Below, in pieces: positions 8,226 through 33,839 of a stretch of DNA of 64,000 nucleotides. Each line of letters begins with the position of its first letter. Within the stretch, counting starts at the first letter, position 1. The stretch comes from a virus (lineage: Duplodnaviria > Caudoviricetes), in the IMG/VR virus record IMGVR_UViG_3300014203_000012, positions 64,001-128,000 of that record, one strand, 5' to 3'. The notes under the pieces were generated by a model, which saw only the letters and a program-made list of their open reading frames with translations, ran no database searches and had not been told where the DNA came from. The position numbers and the translations under genes were made by a program.

Positions 8226-9977
8226 TTATTCCGGTGTGATATAAACATTATATTCTGGAGCTTCACACAGGTATTGGTTTGTACTAAAAACCATACCGAT
8301 GATCGTAGCGATAGCATCTAAAATAATCTGTTCAGATTTGATGGAACTTAAAACATCACCATCAAATTTTTCAGTTCTGATATTGAATGGGCAGCCATTC
8401 AATAGGCATTGCAATGCCAAATCAATAGACACTGCTTTATTTCCATTACAATGTACCAAGTATAACTGAGAAATAAGTTCAACGTATGCTTGATTAAGAA
8501 CTGAATATATATTGAATACTTCTCCACTTTTTAATTTCTCAAGATCCTCTTCTGTATAATCTTTAGTGGCTTCTCTTTCAAGTTGATTAAATGCTCTGAA
8601 CCCTTCAAAGTTGGCACCAAAACCATAACCATCTACAGCCGAGCTTCGGCAATTTAAAACTGCATCTTCGACAAGATCTTTTACTGCATCACGATCCGTC
8701 ATAGAAATACCACCAACAAGATAATCAACCATATTAGCTTTAAGAGAATTAATACGTCTCTTTAGGACGCCAATCTTTGTGATCTCTTCTTTGGTTTGTT
8801 CATAATTTTCCAAAGTTGCATTAAGACCGTCAAGAAGAGAATTATAAATATCACTTTTAGTCCCATCTTCATTATTCATGAGTTTTGGATTGACAACTTT
8901 AGTTTTCATGTTGTCAGACTCGATAAGTTCAGCAGAACCTGCGAAATCATGAATGTTTTCAGGTGTAGCAGCTAATCCTGTAGCTACATCCATTGCTTGG
9001 ATTTTAGGATCTATGTATTTCTTGATTAGTTTTGCTCCGCTTAGTTTAGCTAAATCCATAAGTAGATCACCTTTATTGATATTAGTAACAATAGAAACAG
9101 GTGGACGGTTTTCTGGAGCTGTAGCCGATAATTGTTTAATCATTTCATCGATTGTTGCATCCATGTCATTACTTATCATAGGGCAGAAAATAACGGTAGG
9201 AACGACTGCTTCATATTGTTTTTGTTGCCGTTGCAGTGGTTCGAAAATATTGTCATACATGATTTTATCCAAGAACATACGCATTTCTGGAGTATCGATA
9301 GGATGCTCGAAGACGTATATTTTTGGATTGCGGATAGAAGATACTTTTCTTTTACCGTCATTGATAAAGGCAGGGTCTGAATACCCGCTATCGAATGTTA
9401 AACCATCATAAATCTTTAGGATATTATTAACGGAATTTGAAATACCGACATCGATAAATACATCCATGCCATGATCGGCATAAATATTTTTAATATTGGT
9501 AGATACTTCTTCATTCCCATTAGTGGAGATCATAGCAATACGATAAATATCATCAAGAGTTGTTTCTTTCTTATTGCTCTGGATAATAACGATTGCTTCA
9601 GCAATTGCCTTTTTAAGATGTTTAATCAGCTCATTATCCGAAATACCATATCGTTTACTAGCATCTACTAGCATATTAAAGACTAGAAACGAAAGAATAA
9701 TAGCAGATGTTGTTCCGTCACCAACAGTAGTAACAATTCTACGGGTAATATCTTCAAGATCGTCCCGCATTGTAAATTCGATAGGCTTGTTGAATTTAAT
9801 TGCGCTTAGAATAGTATGTCCATCCTTAGAATACCGTGTCAGTCTATCCTTATCACGAATAGCAGTGACAGAACCAGTTGGACCGTACGAGCACAATAGG
9901 GCATTTGCGATAATTGATAGTGCGTTACTTTGAGCTTCTCTTACCTTTTCTTTTGGAACGATATTTGTATAAACCAT
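8226..9977 (-). CDS. groEL: phage chaperonin (GroEL/Cpn60-like)
   Basis: SYGPTG, SKDGHTIL, VGDGTTSA ATP-binding motifs, VEDAV. Confidence 0.92.
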   Translation of the reverse strand: MVYTNIVPKEKVREAQSNALSIIANALLCSYGPTGSVTAIRDKDRLTRYSKDGHTILSAIKFNKPIEFTMRDDLEDITRRIVTTVGDGTTSAIILSFLVFNMLVDASKRYGISDNELIKHLKKAIAEAIVIIQSNKKETTLDDIYRIAMISTNGNEEVSTNIKNIYADHGMDVFIDVGISNSVNNILKIYDGLTFDSGYSDPAFINDGKRKVSSIRNPKIYVFEHPIDTPEMRMFLDKIMYDNIFEPLQRQQKQYEAVVPTVIFCPMISNDMDATIDEMIKQLSATAPENRPPVSIVTNINKGDLLMDLAKLSGAKLIKKYIDPKIQAMDVATGLAATPENIHDFAGSAELIESDNMKTKVVNPKLMNNEDGTKSDIYNSLLDGLNATLENYEQTKEEITKIGVLKRRINSLKANMVDYLVGGISMTDRDAVKDLVEDAVLNCRSSAVDGYGFGANFEGFRAFNQLEREATKDYTEEDLEKLKSGEVFNIYSVLNQAYVELISQLYLVHCNGNKAVSIDLALQCLLNGCPFNIRTEKFDGDVLSSIKSEQIILDAIATIIGMVFSTNQYLCEAPEYNVYITPE

Positions 9978-14675: not shown

Positions 14676-14687
14676 TACTATATTGTT
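14676..14687 (-). promoter_or_regulatory. late promoter AACA-N6-TA with 5' leader hairpin
   Basis: AACA ATATAG TA; AACCT-GATT-AGGTT hairpin follows. Confidence 0.75.
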
Positions 14688-19912: not shown

Positions 19913-19975
19913 TATATATTTCCTCCTTAAGATGCAATTATATTATTGCTCATCTTTATAATATATAACTCAAAG
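19910..19975 (-). repeat. early promoter + RBS cassette, copy 1 (near-identical to 58966-59030)
   Basis: cattatatat(t)tcctccttaagatgcaatt.tattattgctcatct.tataatatataactcaaa. Confidence 0.85.
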
Positions 19976-19980
19976 AAGAT

Positions 19981-20005
19981 TACGGTATAACTTAGTTATA
20001 CCGTA
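19981..20005 (-). terminator. terminator hairpin (ACGGTATA family)
   Basis: tacggtataac..gttataccgta. Confidence 0.8.
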
Positions 20006-20009
20006 TATA

Positions 20010-21149
20010 TTATTTACAAGCATAAGTAGATTTAGTATCAGCCAAATACATTATAAATCTTTTTCTTAGAATAATATTATCCCATAATAAAGATATATTA
20101 CTTAAACTAGATATTAAAGTAAGAGTAGTATATGGCGCAGATGATGTAAATCCTAATTGACCATTATAATTATTACCAAATGACTTTACGGTACTATCAT
20201 TTAATAATACTAAAGAATGCCCCATACCACATGATATTTGTTTTATATTAGTTAAACTAGAGATTAGTATAGGAGTAGATTGCGGAGTAACTTTATTACC
20301 TAATCCTAATTCACCGTATTGATTATCACCAAATCCCATTAATGTACTATCATTTAGTAATACTAAACAATGAGATTGACCACATGCTATTTGGTTTACG
20401 TTAGTCAAACTAGGTATTAACGTAGGAGCGAGATATGTCGTAGTATTTCCTAAACCTAATTGGCCATAACCATTCTGCCCACATGATTTTACAGTACCAT
20501 CGTTTAGTAATACTAAAGAATGATTACCACCACATGCTATTTGTTTTACGTTACTTAGACTAGATATTAAAGTAGGAGTAGTATATGGAGTAGTGATGTT
20601 ACCTAAGCCTAATTGCCCATTAGTATTCATACCAAATGATTTTACTGTACCATCATTTAGTAATGCTAAAGAATGACTACCACCACATGATATTTGTTTT
20701 ACGTTAGATAGACTAGGTATTAATGTAGGAGTAGTATATCCTACATTAGTATTGCCCAATCCCAATTGACCATATGTATTCTGCCCACATGCTTTTACTG
20801 TACCATCATTTAATAAAACTAAAGAATGATAACCGCCGCATGCTATTTGTTTTATGCTACTCAGCCCAGATATTAACGTAGGAGTATTATATGGTGATGT
20901 AGTATTACCTAAACCTAATTGACCATTATAATTATTACCAAATGACTTTACGGTACTATCATTTAATAATACTAAAGAATGTTGGGCTCCACATGATATT
21001 TGTTTTACGTTAGATAAATTAGGTATTAATGTAGGAGTACTAATTGGGTTGACTACATTACCTAAACCTAATTGTCCTTGATCGTTACTACCAAATGCTT
21101 TTATTGTTCCATCATTTAATAAAACTAAAGACTGAGTATTATTTGACAT
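20010..21149 (-). CDS. RCC1/BLIP-II repeat 7-bladed beta-propeller protein
   Basis: Seven ~51 aa repeats QIxCGxxHSLVLLNDGTVKxFGxNxxGQLGLG; RBS GAGGTG; late promoter AACA TCTAAG TA at 21182-21193. Confidence 0.92.
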   Translation of the reverse strand: MSNNTQSLVLLNDGTIKAFGSNDQGQLGLGNVVNPISTPTLIPNLSNVKQISCGAQHSLVLLNDSTVKSFGNNYNGQLGLGNTTSPYNTPTLISGLSSIKQIACGGYHSLVLLNDGTVKACGQNTYGQLGLGNTNVGYTTPTLIPSLSNVKQISCGGSHSLALLNDGTVKSFGMNTNGQLGLGNITTPYTTPTLISSLSNVKQIACGGNHSLVLLNDGTVKSCGQNGYGQLGLGNTTTYLAPTLIPSLTNVNQIACGQSHCLVLLNDSTLMGFGDNQYGELGLGNKVTPQSTPILISSLTNIKQISCGMGHSLVLLNDSTVKSFGNNYNGQLGFTSSAPYTTLTLISSLSNISLLWDNIILRKRFIMYLADTKSTYACK

Positions 21150-21219
21150 TGCAATCACCTCTTATTTGTTTCTTTTATACTTACTTAGATGTTGGGGTAT
21201 ATTGATATTACAATAAAAA

Positions 21220-21246
21220 ATAAGGCACTTTATACAAGTGCCTTAT
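21220..21246 (-). terminator. terminator hairpin
   Basis: ataaggcactt..aagtgccttat. Confidence 0.75.
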
Positions 21247-21253
21247 ATATTAA

Positions 21254-21604
21254 TTATTTCATTTTATGCATAAGAGCAGTCTGTTCAGCTAATGATAGGA
21301 ACATAGGTCTAAACCATGCTTCAGGGCAATTATCGTCAATATATTTTAACGCAATTGGTTTTGCAGCAAGTTGAATCATTGCTACTATTGGAGCTAGACC
21401 GTAATCTTTAGCTTTGTCATCCCATCTACATCTAAACTCCTTCATAGATTCGTCTGCTACAATTAGTTTAAATACATCATTGACTTGGGTTTCAAACATC
21501 CCGTTTTTATGTAAGAAGAGCTGTAGCTCTTCCCCTAACGTTAAGTTCTCACCTATCGCTTTTAATTTAATCGTGGTTTGTTTTAATACATTACTTTCAT
21601 TCAT
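21254..21604 (-). CDS. hypothetical protein
   Basis: 116 aa, RBS GGGAGG inside end of ATPase gene. Confidence 0.75.
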   Translation of the reverse strand: MNESNVLKQTTIKLKAIGENLTLGEELQLFLHKNGMFETQVNDVFKLIVADESMKEFRCRWDDKAKDYGLAPIVAMIQLAAKPIALKYIDDNCPEAWFRPMFLSLAEQTALMHKMK

Positions 21605-21606
21605 AA

Positions 21607-23604
21607 TTAATCCCTCCCAAATCCTATTTTTATTTTATCTAAAGCTTTATTCATATCAGATATATCATCGGAACTTATAGTAAATATTTCATCTGCAGTC
21701 ATATCAATATATTTATTATCTTCTGATAATCTAGTGGCTTGACGCATAATCGCTTGTTCTAACAAAGTACGTACAAATCTACCATTGCCAAAATCTTTAG
21801 TGCTCATCGCAGTAGATATTTGTATTTCTGCAAAAGCTAACGCCTCTTTGGTAAGGGTAAACTTTTCTTTCTTTGCCATATACGATAATAAATGCATAAG
21901 CTCAGTTTTACTATAATTATCAAATTTAATATGAAACCCTATTCTACTCCTAAGACCAGGATTTGTATCTAGAAACTTTTCCATTTTATCTGGATAACCG
22001 GCTAGGATAATTATAGTATCATCTTTAACTTTATCCATTTCTTCTACTAGAGTATTTATTGCTTCATCTCCAAACATACCAGCTTTATAATCGACCAATG
22101 CATATGCTTCATCTATGAATAGAATTCCTCCTTTGGCAGATTTTATAGCAGCTTTAGTTTTTACTGCAGTATGCCCAACATACTCACCTACTAAACTAGA
22201 TCTTCCGACTTCTACGATTTTACCATTTGTTATAATATCACTTTCTTTAAGAATATTTGCTAATAACCTAGCTACTGTTGTTTTAGCAGTTCCTGGATTG
22301 CCATAGAATACCATATGTCTACATAGGGTAGACGTGGATATTCCTTTTTCTAAATATACTTTTTGCATCTTAACGTATGATAGAATTTGATTAACTGTAT
22401 CTTTGACATTACCAAGCCCTATCATACTATTTAATCTTGCCATAGGGTCGAATGATAATCCTTTCTTAATATCAAGGCTATTTATTTTGTTATATCCCAT
22501 AGACATGATAAGATGATTTGTCTTCCATTTAGTATATAGAACTTCTAAATCTGTGGGTGTGTAAACAAGTTCTTTTAATGATTCACCTCCGTACTTTTTA
22601 AATCCATCAGATTTGGCTTTTGTATTTAAAAATTTCATAGCAATTTCAGTATTAACATTCTTAGGTAGTAAAGGAACATATATAATATTATTGTCTTTTG
22701 CAATTCCTAATATATTATCTTTATCATGAAAGTCTTTTACTGAAATAATAGTTAATACAGATGAGGAATATTCTGCACTTAATTGTATTATTTTTTGAAT
22801 AGTGGCTTCTGAAGTTGTTCCTCTAAATCTATTAAGTTCAGGAGTATTTGCATCTTCTATTTTATTAATTTCAAATATTATCGTATTTCCTGTACCTATA
22901 CGATATGCCATATTAAGATCTTTGCTACTAATATCAGAAGCGTCAACAAAATTAACACATACTGATACTCCTCTATTATTTTTATGAAGTGAATGGACTA
23001 ATGCCATTGGAATAGTATGTCTCTCTTCATGTCTTATAACATAATGAACTGGATGACCATGAAACGATTTAAATTTATTAGCCTTTATTCGATTAAGCTC
23101 ATCTGTAAAATCTCCTAATAAATCTATATTATATATAGAATTAATATTTATATCTTCCACTTCAGTGGTCGATGAGTTGTTATTCCCTCTAACTCTTCGC
23201 ATAATAGTTTGTACTGAAGATGAATAATCGTCAATGCCGATTAATTTATTAACCATATCAGAGCCTATAATTTTTATATTATACGAATCGGGATGAACAG
23301 AAAAGGTTGAAAATATGAATTCATCTATATATTTATATACATTTTTATACATAATACTGTATGATGGAGTTGTTTTGTTGTCTATTGTATAAAACGCATA
23401 TACATTAAATTCAGTATTAGTAAAATTGACAGATGATAATATAGGTAGGATATATGCATTCTTATTATACATAGAAATAGAAAGTGCGTCATTGGTAATT
23501 TCTACGACCTCAGGTATATAATTTTTATCAGTAGACCCGTCCTCTTCTAATAATGGGTGTTTGACTGGTTCATTAAATTTTACATGTACTTCAAATAATA
23601 ACAT
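21607..23604 (-). CDS. AAA+ ATPase, SpoVK/CbbX/EccA family
   Basis: HMVFYGNPGTAKTT Walker A, LFIDEAY Walker B, NPGLRSR, FGNGRFVR, C-terminal IGF; early promoter at 23647-23657. Confidence 0.9.
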   Translation of the reverse strand: MLLFEVHVKFNEPVKHPLLEEDGSTDKNYIPEVVEITNDALSISMYNKNAYILPILSSVNFTNTEFNVYAFYTIDNKTTPSYSIMYKNVYKYIDEFIFSTFSVHPDSYNIKIIGSDMVNKLIGIDDYSSSVQTIMRRVRGNNNSSTTEVEDININSIYNIDLLGDFTDELNRIKANKFKSFHGHPVHYVIRHEERHTIPMALVHSLHKNNRGVSVCVNFVDASDISSKDLNMAYRIGTGNTIIFEINKIEDANTPELNRFRGTTSEATIQKIIQLSAEYSSSVLTIISVKDFHDKDNILGIAKDNNIIYVPLLPKNVNTEIAMKFLNTKAKSDGFKKYGGESLKELVYTPTDLEVLYTKWKTNHLIMSMGYNKINSLDIKKGLSFDPMARLNSMIGLGNVKDTVNQILSYVKMQKVYLEKGISTSTLCRHMVFYGNPGTAKTTVARLLANILKESDIITNGKIVEVGRSSLVGEYVGHTAVKTKAAIKSAKGGILFIDEAYALVDYKAGMFGDEAINTLVEEMDKVKDDTIIILAGYPDKMEKFLDTNPGLRSRIGFHIKFDNYSKTELMHLLSYMAKKEKFTLTKEALAFAEIQISTAMSTKDFGNGRFVRTLLEQAIMRQATRLSEDNKYIDMTADEIFTISSDDISDMNKALDKIKIGFGRD

Positions 23605-23662
23605 AATTCATTTCTCCTTTAGTTTTTATTTTATATTGCTCATTTATATAATATATAACTAA

Positions 23663-23713
23663 AAGAAAAGAATATAACGGTATAGCATAATGCTATACCG
23701 TTTATTTTATTTA
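23663..23713. repeat. 51-bp perfect direct repeat, copy 1 (contains terminator hairpin)
   Basis: aagaaaagaatataacggtatagcataatgctataccgtttattttattta, identical to 24938-24988. Confidence 0.92.
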
Positions 23714-24858
23714 ATAGCATATACCGATTTAGTATCAGTTCTAAACATTACAAATATATTTCTTAGGATAACTAATAATGTATAATTATCCCATAATAAA
23801 GTTACATTACTTAGATTAGGTATTAAAGTAGGAGTGGTATATGGGGTTACTACGTTACCTAAACCTAATTGTCCATAAGTATTATAACCAAATGCTTTTA
23901 CTGTACCATCATTTAGTAATGCTAATGAATGGAGACTACCACATACTATTTGGTTTACGTTACTTAGACTAGGTATTAAAGTAGGAGTAGTATATGATAT
24001 TGTAGTATTACCTAAACCTAATTCACCATCACTATTATATCCAAATGCTTTTACAGTACCATCGTTTAATAAAACTAAAGAATAATATACCCCTCCTGCT
24101 ATTTGTTTTACATTACTTAGATTAGGTATTAATGTAGGAATGGTACTGTTAGCAGTATTACCTAAACCTAATTGTCCATAATCATTCCTGCCAAATCCTT
24201 TTACTGTACCATCATTTAGTAAAACTAAAGAATGAGCATTACCACATGATATTTGGTTTACGTTAGTTATATTAGGTATTAATGTAGGACTCATATATGG
24301 AGTAGTTACGTTACCTAAACCTAATTGACCTTGAGCATTATAACCAAACGACTTTACTGTACCATTATTTAATAATACTAAAGAATGACTACTACCGCAT
24401 GATATTTGTTTTACGTTAGTTAGACTAGGTATTAGCGTAGGACTAGTAATTGGAGTAGTTACATTACCTAAACCTAATTGACCATTAATATTATAACCAA
24501 ATCCTTTTACTGTACCATCATTAAGTAAAACTAAAGAATGACTATCACCACATACTACTTGTTTTACGTTACTTAGACTAGGTATTAACGTAGGACTATT
24601 TTGTTGTGTGGTATTACCTAAACCTAATTGTCCATTACCATTATAACCAAATACTTTTACTGTACCGTCATTTAGTAAAATTAAAGAATGATTACCTCCA
24701 CATGATATTTGTTTTGCATTACTTAGATTAGGTATTAAAGTAGGAGTAGTAATTGGTGTTGTAGTATTACCTAAACCTAATTGACCTTGAGTATTCATAC
24801 CAAATCCTTTTACTGTACCATCGTTTAGTAAAACTAAAGAATGATAATTTAATCCCAT
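23707..24858 (-). CDS. RCC1/BLIP-II repeat 7-bladed beta-propeller protein (paralog)
   Basis: Seven RCC1 repeats; RBS GAGGTG; late promoter AACA CCTAGA TA at 24894-24905. Confidence 0.92.
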   Translation of the reverse strand: MGLNYHSLVLLNDGTVKGFGMNTQGQLGLGNTTTPITTPTLIPNLSNAKQISCGGNHSLILLNDGTVKVFGYNGNGQLGLGNTTQQNSPTLIPSLSNVKQVVCGDSHSLVLLNDGTVKGFGYNINGQLGLGNVTTPITSPTLIPSLTNVKQISCGSSHSLVLLNNGTVKSFGYNAQGQLGLGNVTTPYMSPTLIPNITNVNQISCGNAHSLVLLNDGTVKGFGRNDYGQLGLGNTANSTIPTLIPNLSNVKQIAGGVYYSLVLLNDGTVKAFGYNSDGELGLGNTTISYTTPTLIPSLSNVNQIVCGSLHSLALLNDGTVKAFGYNTYGQLGLGNVVTPYTTPTLIPNLSNVTLLWDNYTLLVILRNIFVMFRTDTKSVYAIK

Positions 24859-24937
24859 TATAAAACACCTCGTATTCTTTTATATTTAATACTTATCTAG
24901 GTGTTGATATATATATATATTTAATACAACAAAATAT

Positions 24938-24988
24938 AAGAAAAGAATATAACGGTATAGCATAATGCTATACCGTTTATTTTATTTA
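24938..24988. repeat. 51-bp perfect direct repeat, copy 2
   Basis: Identical to 23663-23713. Confidence 0.92.
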
Positions 24989-27042: not shown

Positions 27043-27876
27043 TTACTTTGCTATAGGAACTCGTTCTACTATTGTTCTTTGAGCTACTGGGATGGTATTA
27101 CCATTTTTAAAGAAGGCTTGTTCTGGTAACTGATTTAATCTTCCTAGTCTGTCATATAATATTCTAGGAGTTATAGATAATAGTCTAGCCCATTGAGATA
27201 TAGTAATACTTATCCCATTACATTCAACGAATATATTATCTCTACGATTATTTGCTTGGGTGTAATCATCAGCCCATCTGCAATTTGAAGGACAATAATT
27301 GCCATTAACATCTTTCCTATCAATAGACATATGATCTGGTTTGTCTCCCATATCTGAATAGAAATTTTCAAATGATTCTACCCACGAATTGCATACAGTT
27401 ATACCTCGCCCACCATAGTCATTATAACTATTACATTTATCAGAAGAACATCGTCGAATCATTTCTTTCCATATTTTATATTCATGATAATGATTAACGG
27501 AAAATCTTTCGTATCTGCACCCACAGTTTATCGTTCTACCATTCTTTAAAGACCCACCAAGTACTGATATTAATTTACCACATTTAAGACATTTACAGAC
27601 CCATTTACGATTTAATGTTTTTCTTTCTAGATCTTCTTTAATAACAATTAATGTACCAAATTTCTGATCTACTAGATTATCTTTCTTTTCATGTCCGCAA
27701 GATTGAGATGTACCGCTTCGTAATGCACTAGATGAAACAGATCTTATTTGTTTGCATTCGCATTTACAAATCCATCTAGCGCTTATGCCACTTCCTGCAC
27801 TAGCTACTTTATCAAGTTTAATAACTTTCCATTTTCCAAATATTTGTCCTGTCAAATCAATAACTCTTTTACCCAT
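27043..27876 (-). CDS. free-standing HNH homing endonuclease with Zn-finger repeats
   Basis: DLTGQIFG/CxC repeats; YGGRGITVC, SIDRKDVNGNYCPSNCRWA; early promoter at 27936-27946. Confidence 0.88.
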   Translation of the reverse strand: MGKRVIDLTGQIFGKWKVIKLDKVASAGSGISARWICKCECKQIRSVSSSALRSGTSQSCGHEKKDNLVDQKFGTLIVIKEDLERKTLNRKWVCKCLKCGKLISVLGGSLKNGRTINCGCRYERFSVNHYHEYKIWKEMIRRCSSDKCNSYNDYGGRGITVCNSWVESFENFYSDMGDKPDHMSIDRKDVNGNYCPSNCRWADDYTQANNRRDNIFVECNGISITISQWARLLSITPRILYDRLGRLNQLPEQAFFKNGNTIPVAQRTIVERVPIAK

Positions 27877-27903
27877 AATACACCTTCTTAAATCATACAA
27901 AAT

Positions 27904-27960: not shown

Positions 27961-29601
27961 TTAAAATACTGGGTTGGTGATACGTTTTTCATCATCAGGA
28001 AGGATTAATGTAAGGTTATATAATGCCATCATTCCTTCATTTGTAGTCTGCATGATATTTTCTCCACCCAAAGAAATATAATGTGCTTTTGAGTTTAGTT
28101 GATTTCTAAGTTCCTCATTCGCTTCCACACTATAAACCGATTTGCATGAAATCTGGTCGCCATCATAATCACCACCTATACTCCCGAGATATGCGTTGCA
28201 TATCTGAGCTGTATCTATGAAAGTATTAGATGTATTCTTACCAATATCCTCTTGTCTAATCTTAGGATAGTGTGGATAAAATGTATTGTTTATAACCATA
28301 GGCTCTATTGACTTTGATGAACTTACTCTTATCTTTGTAGGGAATTGATTGTAATAACTATCAATAGGATATCTTGTAATAAGAACCATCTTATCTTTCG
28401 TCACTTCTACCGCTGCCATATAGATAAGATCGCACCAAGTGAAATCTCTATCCATGATTGGAAATTTAAGAATATCGTCTCCGTCTTTATATTGCTTTTC
28501 TGTTATACCTTTGCCCTTAAATCGAAGAGTTATATCTTTCTTCTCATCTTCTAATGGAAGTACAATTGGACGGAATCTATTTGAATATCCATGCATGAAT
28601 CTATCAAGTTCTTCTTTTAATATTGTATCAGAAAAAGAGATTTGATAGTCCTTCATTTTATATTGCTTAGTAGATCCATCTTTCATAATTACTTTTCTTA
28701 ATGGATCATTGGCAAATTCATTTTCAAAGAATCTGCGCATGTAAAAGATAATATAAGGAAAAAAGTTAGATACGACAGATGCTAATGGTACTGCCGTGTG
28801 GTCTAGATCGGTAATCATATCTTCCATACGCTCAACTTTAAGGTTAGGAGCTGACAGTACCAAGCGAGACGAGTAATCTGTTGTTTTGCTAAGATTGGCT
28901 CGTCTAAGTGTACCTCTCTTGCCTGGTATATTAGGTTCTGATGTGAGCCAATCATATATACTAACTAAGATCTCTTGTATTCTTCCTCTAACAGAATCTG
29001 CAAGAGTTAATCCATATTCAGCAGATTCTTTTAAAGAGTTAGTTGCTATGATTAGTGCGTTGTATAACTTATTTACATCTCCGACACCCACATATCCACC
29101 ATCACTATTTACATCGCGATAGTATGCTGGAATAACTATCATATCTTCGATAAACATTAAGTCTTTATATTTCTTCAAAAACTTAATATTGTTTTCTCGC
29201 TTAGAAGATTCAGTAGACTTGATTTTAATCTTATCAATATTCTTCTTTAAGAAGATTAATCCATTTTCCCCATCTTCATCTTCTACTAGTTCTCCAGCTG
29301 AGTTAATTTTAAAGCTACTTGTTCCGTGGACACATGCTCGAAAACGACTATCCATTTTACATAGTATTTTATACATCAGTGGATGTATAAAAGGAGTTTT
29401 GCCTAAAGAGATTGTAGCAAAGGTATTAGCCCTCTGTTCTTTTGATATACCAAATATCTCATTAGATAGGAGCCCGTCAGACGTAGGGGCGTTGTTTTTT
29501 GTGAAGAAGACGGCATTCGAAATTGATTGTACCTTATTAACTTTAATAAAATTAGACACGTTGAGTGGTTTTAATGAGAAGTATTTTTGTTCATCCGGCA
29601 T
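27961..29601 (-). CDS. rpoC: multisubunit RNA polymerase beta-prime-like catalytic subunit (probably virion RNAP)
   Basis: DGLLSNEIFG, VIPAYYRD, KTTDYSSRLV, ITRYP and catalytic GGDYDGD (DxDGD). Confidence 0.9.
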   Translation of the reverse strand: MPDEQKYFSLKPLNVSNFIKVNKVQSISNAVFFTKNNAPTSDGLLSNEIFGISKEQRANTFATISLGKTPFIHPLMYKILCKMDSRFRACVHGTSSFKINSAGELVEDEDGENGLIFLKKNIDKIKIKSTESSKRENNIKFLKKYKDLMFIEDMIVIPAYYRDVNSDGGYVGVGDVNKLYNALIIATNSLKESAEYGLTLADSVRGRIQEILVSIYDWLTSEPNIPGKRGTLRRANLSKTTDYSSRLVLSAPNLKVERMEDMITDLDHTAVPLASVVSNFFPYIIFYMRRFFENEFANDPLRKVIMKDGSTKQYKMKDYQISFSDTILKEELDRFMHGYSNRFRPIVLPLEDEKKDITLRFKGKGITEKQYKDGDDILKFPIMDRDFTWCDLIYMAAVEVTKDKMVLITRYPIDSYYNQFPTKIRVSSSKSIEPMVINNTFYPHYPKIRQEDIGKNTSNTFIDTAQICNAYLGSIGGDYDGDQISCKSVYSVEANEELRNQLNSKAHYISLGGENIMQTTNEGMMALYNLTLILPDDEKRITNPVF

Positions 29602-29671
29602 AATATATTGCTCCTTTTATATTATTATACATTATACTTATTAATAATAAGTAGGATTGGAGATGTTTAAA

Positions 29672-30718
29672 TTGGGTAGAAATATTATAGATTTGACTGG
29701 GCAGATGTTTGGCTCTTGGGAAGTATTAGAGTATGATAAATCTAGTTATGGTGCCTCATCAAGATGGAAATGCCAATGCATTAATTGTAAAAAAATAAAA
29801 AGTCTAGCATCTGGGGATTTAAGAAGTGGTAAAACTAGTACTTGCAGTTGTTCACGTAGATTAGATTTGACTGGGCAAATATTTGGAAATTGGGAAGTAA
29901 TTGGATTTGATAATACAAAATGCAAAAGAATAGTAAAATGCACAAAATGTGGAGGAGTTACTGAAATTTCAACTAATAGTGTGATATATGAAAATATTCG
30001 TTGTGTTGTATGCAATTATATAGATACCAAAATCATCGATAAAGATAAACACCACCGTACTTATTCTTTTGAAGATTTGACTGGGCAAATATTTGGAAAT
30101 TGGGAGGTTATGGGGCGCTCGTCCACTAGTACTGCAAATAGAATAGTAAAATGCACAAAATGTGGAGGGGTTAAAGAAGCAGATCTACATAGAATATCTA
30201 AGAAACCAGATACTATTTTTTGTGATTCTTGCGGAGTAAGAAATACTGCATGGGGAGGTAATTGTGCGGAATATATATCAGAATATAGAACGTGGAGTTC
30301 TATGAAACAAAGATGCTATAACCCAACTGATATAAGTTATCATAATTATGGAGCAAGAGATATAACAGTTTGCGATGAATGGATAGATGATTTCAATACA
30401 TTTTTAAATGATATGGGACCGAAGCCATCTAAAGAGTATTCTATAGATAGAATAGATGTGAATGATAACTATTGTAAATTGAATTGTAAATGGTCGGATA
30501 GGACTACTCAAGGAAATAATAGAAGAAATAATGCATATGAAACTATCAATGATACAACTCTAACTAGAGTTCAATGGTATAGACTAACCAATCAGCAGAG
30601 AACATCAGTCATATATAGAATGGAAATGAATGGTATGAATTTCGAGGATGCTTTATTTAAAACATCAAGGCTATTACAAATAGTAAAACGAGTAGATATA
30701 AATAATCCCCATTCGTAG
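29672..30718 (+). CDS. free-standing HNH homing endonuclease with duplicated Zn-finger modules
   Basis: Three DLTGQxFG modules; WSSMKQRC, YGARDITVC, SIDRIDVNDNYCKLNCKW; likely TTG start 29672. Confidence 0.88.
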   Translation: MGRNIIDLTGQMFGSWEVLEYDKSSYGASSRWKCQCINCKKIKSLASGDLRSGKTSTCSCSRRLDLTGQIFGNWEVIGFDNTKCKRIVKCTKCGGVTEISTNSVIYENIRCVVCNYIDTKIIDKDKHHRTYSFEDLTGQIFGNWEVMGRSSTSTANRIVKCTKCGGVKEADLHRISKKPDTIFCDSCGVRNTAWGGNCAEYISEYRTWSSMKQRCYNPTDISYHNYGARDITVCDEWIDDFNTFLNDMGPKPSKEYSIDRIDVNDNYCKLNCKWSDRTTQGNNRRNNAYETINDTTLTRVQWYRLTNQQRTSVIYRMEMNGMNFEDALFKTSRLLQIVKRVDINNPHS

Positions 30719-33476: not shown

Positions 33477-33839
33477 ATGGCTAAAAGAATTGGCAGATCG
33501 AATTTAGTGGGAAAAACTTTTGGATATCGTGAAGTTCTTGAATATGATGAAAAATCTAGAGATACTGGGGCGTCTAGATGTGTATGTGGAAAAATATCCA
33601 GTGTTAGTAGCGGGTCTTTACGAGAGGCAACAAATTGTGGATGCCTAAAAATAAAAGATCTTACAGATCGAAGATTTGGAAAATTGGTAGCGATTAAGAG
33701 AGTATATACTGATAATGCATATGGTGTACATTGGTTATGTCACTGCGATTGTGGTAATGATAAAATTCAAATAGTTGAAAGGGTTCCTATATTAACCCAA
33801 ATAATAAATAGAGTTGATATAAATAATAAGGAGAGCTGA
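33477..33839 (+). pseudogene. internally deleted HNH endonuclease derivative (Zn-finger modules, no nuclease domain)
   Basis: NLVGKTFG, DLTDRRFG, WLCHCDCG then directly the C-terminal tail motifs; HNH core missing. Confidence 0.7.

Follow-up and report, generated by a model that had tools for sequence, protein, structure and literature searches.

Seven genes for stand-alone RCC1-like beta-propellers, with 43 blades between them, were found in the record of an AR9-like jumbo phage (IMG/VR record IMGVR_UViG_3300014203_000012), and two of these genes, here called A and B, lie in the 64,000-nucleotide stretch analysed (the window), which comprises bases 64001-128000 of the 183,919-base linear record, a metagenome assembly that is approximately 75% complete. 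We put at roughly one half the probability that a lineage of AR9-like phages has gained and multiplied these propellers, that their scaffold evolves in concert while one face is under diversifying selection, and that the products are likely to be binders carried on the virion. In our reading this is ordinary evolution, by recombination and diversifying selection, and not the work of a dedicated mutagenic machine.

The phage and its RCC1-like genes

The window has a GC content of about 31% and PHROG matches for 53 of its open reading frames (ORFs) indicate a jumbo phage that encodes a multisubunit RNA polymerase of its own (phrog_2986, E 6.3e-82; phrog_25005), the major head protein, a head maturation protease and a GroEL-like chaperonin being also among the matched ORFs. 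The phage is an AR9-like jumbo phage, with which its promoter motifs agree. The two propeller genes of the window are:

20010..21149, minus strand: RCC1-like propeller gene A (genome paralog R3), 379 amino acids, 7 blades and a conserved C-terminal tail (from ORF and Pfam)
23707..24858, minus strand: RCC1-like propeller gene B (genome paralog R4), 383 amino acids, 7 blades and a conserved C-terminal tail (from Pfam, AlphaFold2 and Foldseek)

ORF A extends over 20010-21158 on the minus strand and gives 382 amino acids when counted from a GTG, the likelier start being the ATG at 21149, which is preceded by the ribosome-binding site AAGAGGTG; ORF B (23707-24858, minus strand) gives 383. Both exceed the curated cut-offs of the RCC1/BLIP-II beta-propeller superfamily (Pfam PF00415, PF13540, PF25390), with PF00415 (cut-off 21.7) matching A at E 4.6e-86 (283.7 bits) and B at E 6.1e-84 (276.9 bits), and PF25390 (cut-off 150) matching A at E 3.2e-91 (306.8 bits) and B at E 3.9e-105 (352.6 bits).

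Across the whole record there were 41 RCC1 repeat matches spread over seven open frames, at genome positions of approximately 36.3, 57.9, 84.0 (A), 87.7 (B), 138.5, 151.1 and 181.0 kb, with 5, 7, 7, 7, 7, 3 and 7 blades respectively (43 in sum). An earlier note on this DNA had described two RCC1 propellers with 14 blades, which is right as to both genes and too small as to the family. All seven ORFs are intact with a regular blade period of 48-51 residues, every protein begins straight with a blade (MGxNxHSLVLLNDGTVK), and a C-terminal tail of about 25-30 residues (LLWDN...RFVMF.TDTKS.Y..K) is common to all of them. Median within-gene blade identity at the protein level was 0.69, 0.63, 0.63, 0.72, 0.62, 0.61 and 0.75 across the seven genes, all of which thus pass the criterion for highly symmetric propellers (median blade identity >60%).

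The two short paralogs, with 3 blades (genome 151149-151685, plus strand) and 5 blades (genome 36307-37155, plus strand), retain the usual start and the C-terminal tail; the late-type promoter motif described below is retained by the 5-blade paralog, and the 3-blade paralog has TACA in place of AACA. Neither could close a seven-blade ring alone, and oligomerisation, decay or an origin as products of unequal recombination are all conceivable.

Homogenised scaffold and loss of blade position

Codon choice in the framework columns of the blades was compared with that of 93 other long ORFs (40,567 codons). Isoleucine was ATA in 42/43 and 33/33 blades in framework columns against 40% genome-wide, valine was GTA in 39/39 and 34/35 against 42%, and glutamine was CAA in 33/33 and 35/35 in two columns. 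Proline was CCT in 41/42 and 30/32 in two columns yet CCA in 22 of 25 in a third, leucine was TTA in most columns and CTA in 27/41 and 27/38 in two, and serine was AGT, TCT or TCA according to the column. Framework codon choice is therefore column-specific, which translational preference cannot be, and must reflect identity by descent or by conversion; no tRNA genes that might be a cause of the codon choice were found within the window.

Synonymous codon diversity averaged 0.47 of the codon-usage equilibrium over 32 conserved columns, and four-fold sites had a mean nucleotide diversity (pi) of 0.355 against 0.655 expected, with a bimodal distribution. The 14 blades of A and B had a mean nucleotide identity of 0.762 over all columns and 0.445 at the variable tips; in the framework it was 0.866 (range 0.75-0.95), so that the homogenised scaffold of the earlier note is borne out and its wording, "near-identical" framework codons, is overstated. 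For all 43 blades the mean DNA identity was 0.745 overall and 0.852 in the framework.

The nearest neighbour of a blade shares its position in the propeller for 5 of the 43 blades, which is chance level, and lies in the same gene for 12 of the 43, a mild excess. Among the five 7-blade genes, identity was 0.748 for blades at the same position (70 pairs) and 0.742 for blades at other positions (420 pairs), a difference reached by 35 of 1000 permutations; for the framework only the figures were 0.844 and 0.846 (730 of 1000), and for the variable columns 0.578 and 0.563 (18 of 1000). Plain duplication of 7-blade genes should make blade n closest to blade n, and as this was not what we observed, descent by position has left little trace. 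Framework synonymous divergence (dS) was similar within genes (0.47) and between genes (0.50). When the blades of seven outside proteins were included in the comparison, the nearest neighbour was within the own genome for all 43 blades, and the 14 blades of two paralogs on another large contig likewise clustered together.

Recombination tracts between blades

An exact duplication of 68 nt linking two non-adjacent blades of A had been pointed out in the earlier note and was confirmed:

20152..20219: 68-nt exact repeat, copy 1, in blade 7 of A, spanning HSLVLLNDSTVKSFGNNYNGQLG including one tip
20914..20981: 68-nt exact repeat, copy 2, in blade 2 of A

It is the longest of 136 exact matches of at least 24 nt among the seven paralogs, the next-longest being of 52, 45 and 41 nt. 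In a Sawyer-type test with 122 polymorphic sites and 300 site permutations, the repeat amounted to 52 concordant polymorphic sites, which none of the 300 permutations reached (permuted maximum: mean 31, sd 4.5, largest 47), and this supports recombination tracts. The 5-blade paralog contains a second tract, which links its blades 3 and 5 and has 42 concordant sites against a 95th percentile of 34 for the second-longest run; both of these top tracts contain hypervariable columns. The test ignores the clustering of slow sites, so that shorter tracts in the conserved HSLVLLNDGTVK stretch mean little. Unsaturated synonymous sites, equidistant blades, a blade consensus of the lineage's own and the tracts together fit concerted evolution better than a single burst of amplification, an exchange of blades being what the pattern suggests, as no exchange event itself was observed.

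Right after the 68-nt tract, blade 7 of A (window 20090-20160) has a degenerate loop, reading GQLGFTSSAPYTTLTL where other blades read GQLGLGNTTSPYTTPTL.

Hypervariable loops and their place in the fold

Five columns of the blade alignment, numbers 2, 3, 19, 21 and 22, have an amino-acid entropy of about 3 bits, two in the motif CGxxH and three in GxNxxG, and the five-residue signatures which they form are distinct in all 43 blades (43/43). Tip composition is 20% Y, 19% N and 14% S, then G, Q, T and D. The tip residues listed earlier were all found, both the CGxxH pairs (AQ, GY, GS, GN, QS, MG, DS, SS, NA, SL) and the GxNxxG strings (SNDQ, NNYN, QNTY, MNTN, QNGY, DNQY, YNGN, YNIN, YNAQ, RNDY, YNSD).

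AlphaFold2 (AF2), run on B with a 44-sequence alignment, gave a model with 28 strands in seven four-stranded blades (predicted local distance difference test, pLDDT, 94.2; predicted template modelling score, pTM, 0.90) that is confident for residues 1-355. The ring is closed in the last blade, where the N-terminal strands 6-11 and 16-20 pair with the C-terminal strands 340-345 and 352-355. The closest solved fold by Foldseek was UVR8 (E 4e-40, template modelling (TM) score 0.87, root-mean-square deviation 1.4-1.6 Å, 31-32% identity), followed by the RCC1-like domains of HERC1 and HERC2, by RPGR, by RCC1 itself (at TM 0.78-0.80) and by BLIP-II (TM 0.56 by query length).

By DSSP assignment on the model, CGxxH sits in a three-residue loop joining strand B to strand C, and the long connection between strand D and the next blade's strand A holds GxNxxGQLGLGNxxxxxx. 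As the blade is four-stranded and antiparallel, the B-C and D-A loops share one face, with the NDG turn and the PxLxN loop on the other. In phmmer alignments the W and R of the UVR8 GWRHT motifs fall opposite the two variable residues of CGxxH, and the W of UVR8 GWG, GWS and GWN falls opposite the first x of GxNxxG; these UVR8 residues build its dimer and partner-binding interface. The earlier note had proposed a check by AlphaFold of whether the variable residues form one face; topology and the UVR8 alignment both suggest that they are concentrated in same-face loops. By this topology the C-terminal tail would leave the ring at the position of the closing blade's B-C loop, on the variable face.

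Rates of change at the tips

Pooled Nei-Gojobori (NG86) estimates gave a framework dS of 0.50 and a nonsynonymous divergence (dN) of 0.08 in the framework and 1.13 at the tips. A rate test was also carried out column by column, using a neighbour-joining tree, Fitch parsimony counts (which undercount changes at saturated sites), dN over global dS and a Bonferroni correction over 51 columns. The five tip columns had ratios of 1.55, 1.54, 1.56, 1.78 and 1.25 with Poisson P values of 0.013, 0.010, 0.011, 0.00097 and 0.14, and only column 21 (P = 0.00097) passes Bonferroni. Ratios in the framework columns were at most 0.61 throughout and mostly <0.45. A third loop, LGNxxxPxxTP, is also variable and approximately neutral, with 0.79-1.30 in six of its seven columns and 0.45 in the conserved proline column. 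The comparison of tips with framework that the earlier note had called for hence found the excess at the tips (1.25-1.78 times the global synonymous rate), and did not find significance after Bonferroni correction in four of the five columns. These rates suggest a nonsynonymous excess at the tips that is real but modest.

A competing explanation of the pattern is that the amplification is simply young, each gene having arisen recently from one blade, followed by gene duplication, with relaxed loops, no continuing conversion and no positive selection. Highly symmetric propellers are common (RCC1/BLIP-II is reported as their third largest group, with about 10% of the set; PMC9218822) and all seven genes here are above the >60% threshold (0.61-0.75), the same loop columns are unconserved across the 44 family members, and the near-neutral third loop is what relaxed constraint would give. 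However, the blade-by-blade orthology expected from such an origin is missing, with same-position identity equal to other-position identity, the two longest tracts, at 52 and 42 concordant polymorphic sites, are beyond what the permutations give, and relative to the synonymous rate the tip columns change about 1.5-1.8 times as fast in four cases and 1.25 times as fast in the fifth, and not at 1. We therefore consider a young amplification with relaxed loops to be unlikely.

Self-contained cassettes and their probable gain in one lineage

Four related phage records were found via the major head protein (84, 84, 73 and 57% identity) and RCC1 repeats were present in none of the four, one of which, of 245.7 kb, has terminal repeats and is complete, another being 91% complete; gene order around the window genes is otherwise conserved in these relatives. 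The best database matches of B are its own paralogs (62-74% identity), and the nearest outside proteins are 63, 57, 54 and 52% identical. These four outside proteins (P0007, P0012, P0033 and P0035), encoded on metagenome contigs no longer than 236 kb, share the N-terminal propeller of seven blades and the LWD motif and are extended by further domains at the C-terminus. Three of them were scanned, and in two the extension has matches solely among PHROGs without an assigned function (phrog_21039, phrog_15809). By comparison with these proteins, the tail shared by the seven paralogs looks like the stump of a linker to such extra domains. The blades of the outside relatives have a uniform consensus of their own, for example GQCGTG as against GQLGLG.

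The features that surround A and B are as follows:

23657..23706: 50-nt direct repeat downstream of B, holding the terminator hairpin 23676-23702; 48 of 50 letters identical to the copy at 24932-24981
24932..24981: 50-nt direct repeat upstream of the B cassette, holding the terminator hairpin 24951-24977 of the preceding gene
19981..20005, minus strand: terminator-like hairpin straight after the stop codon of A, with an 11-pair stem
21182..21193, minus strand: AACATCTAAGTA, late-promoter-like (AACA-N6-TA), 44 nt upstream of the ATG of A
24894..24905, minus strand: AACACCTAGATA, late-promoter-like motif, 47 nt upstream of the ATG of B
19951..19967, minus strand: early-promoter-like TATATATTAT-N6-G that follows A's terminator and points towards the next gene, a match to the AR9 early consensus
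23641..23657, minus strand: early-promoter-like motif after the terminator of B and before the AAA+ ATPase gene, a match to the AR9 early consensus
21607..23604, minus strand: AAA+ ATPase of 665 amino acids, context only and outside the RCC1 family (Pfam AAA, E 2.9e-17; AAA_lid_6, E 5.9e-14)

In the complete relative (G003) the ATPase gene and a glucosaminidase-like gene lie 137 bp apart, and the spacer consists of one terminator hairpin and one early-type promoter with no RCC1 gene. The same spacer here holds a terminator, the late-type motif, gene B, the same terminator again (48/50 identical) and the early-type promoter. The paralog at 138.5 kb is similarly flanked, by repeats at genome 138421-138470 and 139683-139732 that are identical in 43 of 50 letters, which hints that RCC1 cassettes may enter or leave by recombination at terminators. 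Given this terminator-bracketed organisation and the absence from relatives, each RCC1 gene is a self-contained cassette, and the ATPase gene between A and B is an accidental neighbour.

The late promoters of AR9 are described as AACA-(6N)-TA/G and its early promoters as AAATATATATTAT-(6N)-G (PMC5312081). The form AACA-N6-TA is found 39-64 nt before the ATG in six of the seven paralogs, but because the upstream regions of the paralogs are homologous these six occurrences are not independent. It also stands just upstream of the major head protein gene (14676-14687) and the head protease gene (1446-1457), and upstream of further genes annotated as virion structural by PHROGs. In all it lies within 80 nt upstream of 28 of the 173 ORFs of at least 100 amino acids, and it is depleted in the window (48 matches against 75.6 +/- 9.4 in shuffles); depletion together with copies before head and virion genes would be expected if this is a real promoter that is avoided elsewhere. 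The genome has 31 copies of the early-type motif (T)TATATATTATATAgATGAGcAATAA, which agree over a long consensus, and two of them are those after the terminators of A and B; as the motif matches the AR9 early (virion RNA polymerase) consensus it probably marks the early genes of the phage. Sigma-70-type promoters were not enriched (22 found against 37.1 expected). The late promoters which the earlier note had assigned to both genes hold good as motif matches, at -44 (A) and -47 (B), and not beyond the level of the motif.

Possible role of the propellers

To our knowledge Ran does not exist in bacteria, and the name "regulator of chromosome condensation" is therefore no guide to function here. 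The best PHROG for both proteins is phrog_7220 (A, E 2.6e-79; B, E 1.2e-103), and phrog_4219 is matched by A at E 2.4e-63 and by B at E 2.3e-59. Three adjacent RCC1 proteins of 40-43 kDa from phage W70 (W70_237-239; phrog_4219) were detected in the virion by mass spectrometry (PMC11370258), GAP32 gp1 is a virion protein with 13 homologue copies in 121Q and 6 in PBEC04 (PMC5259590), and 11 RCC1-like copies are reported for phAPEC6 (PMC7247149). The suggestion of a role in DNA condensation made by these authors derives from the family name (PMC7247149, PMC5259590, PMC11370258). In the C. difficile phage LIBA2945, the second-best tblastn match, an RCC1 domain is part of a 1627-amino-acid protein encoded between two tail-fibre genes. 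By analogy, the virion proteomics of other phages and the tail-fibre context in LIBA2945 favour a virion role over an intracellular one, and, with the late-type promoter motif also considered, the most likely role for A, B and their paralogs would be that of virion-associated binders with the variable face as the binding site.

Proteins that evolve in the same mode could also act inside the cell, as decoys or inhibitors of host defence or of other host proteins, and need not be virion parts. Counter-defence genes are often accessory and lineage-specific, as are these cassettes that are absent from relatives, and no signal peptide or fusion to a structural domain was seen in the RCC1 genes; RCC1-like propellers are moreover general protein binders, for example BLIP-II with beta-lactamase (PDB 1jtd). 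The late-type promoter motif shared with the head genes argues the other way, whereas counter-defence genes are usually early, and so do the W70 and GAP32 homologues detected in virions and the C-terminal extensions of the outside relatives, which match phage PHROGs of unknown function. An intracellular role is in our estimate about as unlikely as a young amplification.

A course of events and the points against it

On the reading that we prefer, that of propellers gained by the lineage and evolving in concert as virion binders, seven stand-alone RCC1-like genes would have been gained and multiplied in an AR9-like jumbo phage lineage, each as its own cassette of late-type promoter, strong ribosome-binding site, ORF and terminator hairpin. 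Gene conversion and unequal recombination among the 43 blades, within and between genes, would keep the scaffold DNA alike, and the same recombination would create or remove blades to give paralogs with 3, 5 and 7. Five residues per blade, two in the B-C loop and three at the start of the D-A loop, would change faster than synonymous sites, and on one face. The outcome would be one scaffold and one C-terminal tail with seven different binding faces, on proteins made late and carried by the virion, at its surface or inside it, where they would act as binders whose targets are perhaps structures of the host surface; the tail common to them all may be what attaches them.

Several points weigh against this. 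The excess at the tips is modest, in columns which were chosen for their variability and of which one in five is past Bonferroni, and the rate test applied a neighbour-joining tree and parsimony to recombining sequences. The same columns are variable in RCC1 repeats generally, as the consensus of the 44 sequences shows, and as they are unconserved across the family a lack of constraint explains much of the pattern. Seven of 15 four-fold sites have a pi of at least 0.5 and are thus as variable as the tips, and synonymous diversity is not raised near the tips (Spearman rho 0.06, P 0.75, and -0.09, P 0.63); hitch-hiking around the tips was dropped as an idea, synonymous diversity being flat there. 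That the five tip columns lie on one face is suggested by strand topology and the UVR8 alignment and not by a measured surface, and the tail of B is of low confidence in the model (residues 356-383, pLDDT 42-57). Virion presence and the timing of expression are putative, the late-promoter-like motif that the genes have in common with head genes being what suggests them; the RCC1 proteins of isolated phages are <41% identical, and the record is a metagenome assembly.

Programmed diversification and copies in other assemblies

A more far-reaching possibility is that the 43 blades are exchangeable cassettes of a recombination-driven repertoire without a reverse transcriptase, in which conversion between dispersed loci keeps making new faces and the common tail plugs the variants into the same virion site or cellular partner. 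If true, this would be a phage counterpart of the repeat shuffling of fungal NLRs or of antigenic-variation cassettes, serving host range or counter-defence, but we think it doubtful, and somewhat more so than the two alternatives above. The earlier note had likewise spoken of recombination-driven diversification without a reverse transcriptase, and its elements of recombination, one-face variability and the lack of a reverse transcriptase match (in a record about 75% complete) were recovered while that of an active generator was not. Three near-identical RCC1 copies were found in other assemblies and none has a change in a tip column. The first has a single L to V substitution in the framework and the second a single M to I substitution in the third loop, the copies carrying two substitutions in all, and nothing here points to an active generator of a binder "library". 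The third (330 amino acids) is short of precisely one blade of 51 residues, at the place where two closely similar blades meet; as it is on a 1228-bp contig, a true deletion and a repeat collapsed in assembly are equally likely. The stretch was matched by one public run, of landfill metagenome DNA (share 0.51), with no RNA run listed; this run gave short contigs at a depth of 3-5 that cross-map between paralogs, with short joint sides (21-33 letters).

Programmed rewriting of the tips by a mechanism dedicated to it, over the lifetime of a population, is very unlikely, be it by adenine mutagenesis in the manner of diversity-generating retroelements (DGRs) or by frequent shuffling of cassettes between the 43 blades. 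Tip codons are most often AAT and TAT, variation is mainly at codon positions 1 and 2, and position 3 is T in 27-35 of 41-43 blades, which superficially resembles the AAY codons of DGRs. A third-position T, however, is what the codon usage of the phage gives for N, Y, D and H (80-82%), so that a DGR reading of these NNT codons is unsupported, and it was rejected on this ground together with the search for a reverse transcriptase, in which PF00078 had no match at E up to 1 in the 183,919-base record (about 75% complete). Twenty framework nucleotide columns are adenine in at least 95% of blades, and adenine-directed mutagenesis would hit them. Differences between blades are not restricted to adenines, and no separate search for a non-coding template repeat was made. 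There are indeed 43 potential donor cassettes with proven tracts, and a variant lacking exactly one blade in another assembly, yet both of the point variants, with one substitution each, are changed off the tip columns.

That short-read metagenome assembly has scrambled or collapsed the repeats, and that the mosaic is not biological, is hardly credible, for although Illumina assemblies are reported to fail on the highly conserved WD40 repeats of fungal NLRs (PMC11761791), the 330-amino-acid variant on its 1228-bp contig may be a collapse and the contigs of the metagenome run are fragmented over repeats, the blades here are about 75% identical in DNA with a longest exact repeat of 68 nt, shorter than usual reads, none of the seven ORFs is broken and their blades recur regularly every 48-51 residues, five of six paralog proteins that were looked up are identical letter for letter in JGI/IMG and the European Nucleotide Archive (ENA), and the sixth (376 amino acids) is in JGI/IMG with an ENA copy, on a 66.7-kb contig, that differs in one residue.

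Comparison with known systems

Multi-copy RCC1 genes in big phages are already known. Those of phAPEC6, 121Q, PBEC04, GAP32 (gp1) and W70 (W70_237-239) are, like the genes here, stand-alone RCC1/BLIP-II propellers of about 40 kDa with several per genome. These phages are, in contrast, Gram-negative Rak2-like phages or Vequintavirinae with identity <30% in tblastn, and the RCC1 copies reported for them are mostly clustered, whereas the seven cassettes here are dispersed over 146 kb; the cited passages on those families mention neither blade-level concerted evolution nor tip variability. A literature search, which did not cover subscription journals, found no account of phage RCC1 families with blade-level evolution, and matches to "RCC1..." in PMC12906663 were a false lead, being culture-collection strain numbers. 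The new elements are how the family evolves, as documented above, where its variable sites lie, its organisation in cassettes and its gain within one lineage.

Among known systems, the WD40 repeats of fungal NLRs (het-d, het-e and the HNWD family of Podospora anserina) come nearest in the way they work; they are described as evolving in concert and changing in repeat number, with diversifying selection acting on a small number of hypervariable positions at the interaction surface (PMC11761791). Column-specific codons, almost lost positional homology, tracts and the clustering by genome of 43/43 blades point to concerted evolution of the HNWD type here as well. The fungal proteins have WD40 and not RCC1 repeats and are cellular immune receptors with NOD architecture, as against a single-domain phage protein, and repeat identity within a HNWD gene is given as 80-100%, compared with 61-75% at the protein level here. 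With this lower repeat identity and different architecture the phage family is not a member of the fungal class.

The highly symmetric propellers of Pereira and Lupas 2022 (median blade identity >60%) include, as here, RCC1/BLIP-II folds, viruses and differing blade numbers (PMC9218822). Symmetry is explained there by amplification (PMC9218822), whereas the lost positional homology and the tracts found here point to continuing exchange. UVR8 has the same seven-bladed RCC1 fold, but the phage proteins are without its tryptophan cluster and no photoreceptor role is implied. DGRs resemble the present case as phage-borne variation on a few surface codons of a binding protein, and differ from it in that here there is no reverse transcriptase match, adenines are invariant and near-identical copies have unchanged tips.

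RCC1-like genes number 6 to 13 in several large phages, with some of the products in virions, and in the reports cited above a DNA-condensation guess based on the name is the only one offered. The present family offers a testable alternative, a common scaffold and tail presenting different faces of five residues per blade. If this is true, RCC1 proteins would be adaptable binders that bear on host recognition, the repeat-shuffling mode of fungal immune receptors would operate in phage genomes too, and a regular scaffold with defined variable positions would be interesting as a natural binder framework.

Neighbouring genes

A and B are separated by one ORF of 116 amino acids and by the AAA+ ATPase gene. 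The ATPase homologue in G003 is 50% identical and occurs there without any RCC1 gene, and among the viral contigs scanned with the ATPase there was one weak locus only. A functional link between the RCC1 genes and the ATPase was considered and found no support, the ATPase being present in G003 without RCC1 and having its own early-type promoter here. In G002, which is the closer relative by head protein, the ATPase is missing at the syntenic place, which makes its gene accessory as well.

Three HNH endonuclease-like ORFs (phrog_374) lie around the RNA polymerase beta-like gene at 27961-29601, at 27043-27900 (minus strand), 29657-30718 (plus strand) and 33477-33839 (plus strand). The GroEL-like chaperonin gene (phrog_5725, E 3.1e-57; window 8226-9977, minus strand) lies within the head-gene region, as it does in some other jumbo phages.

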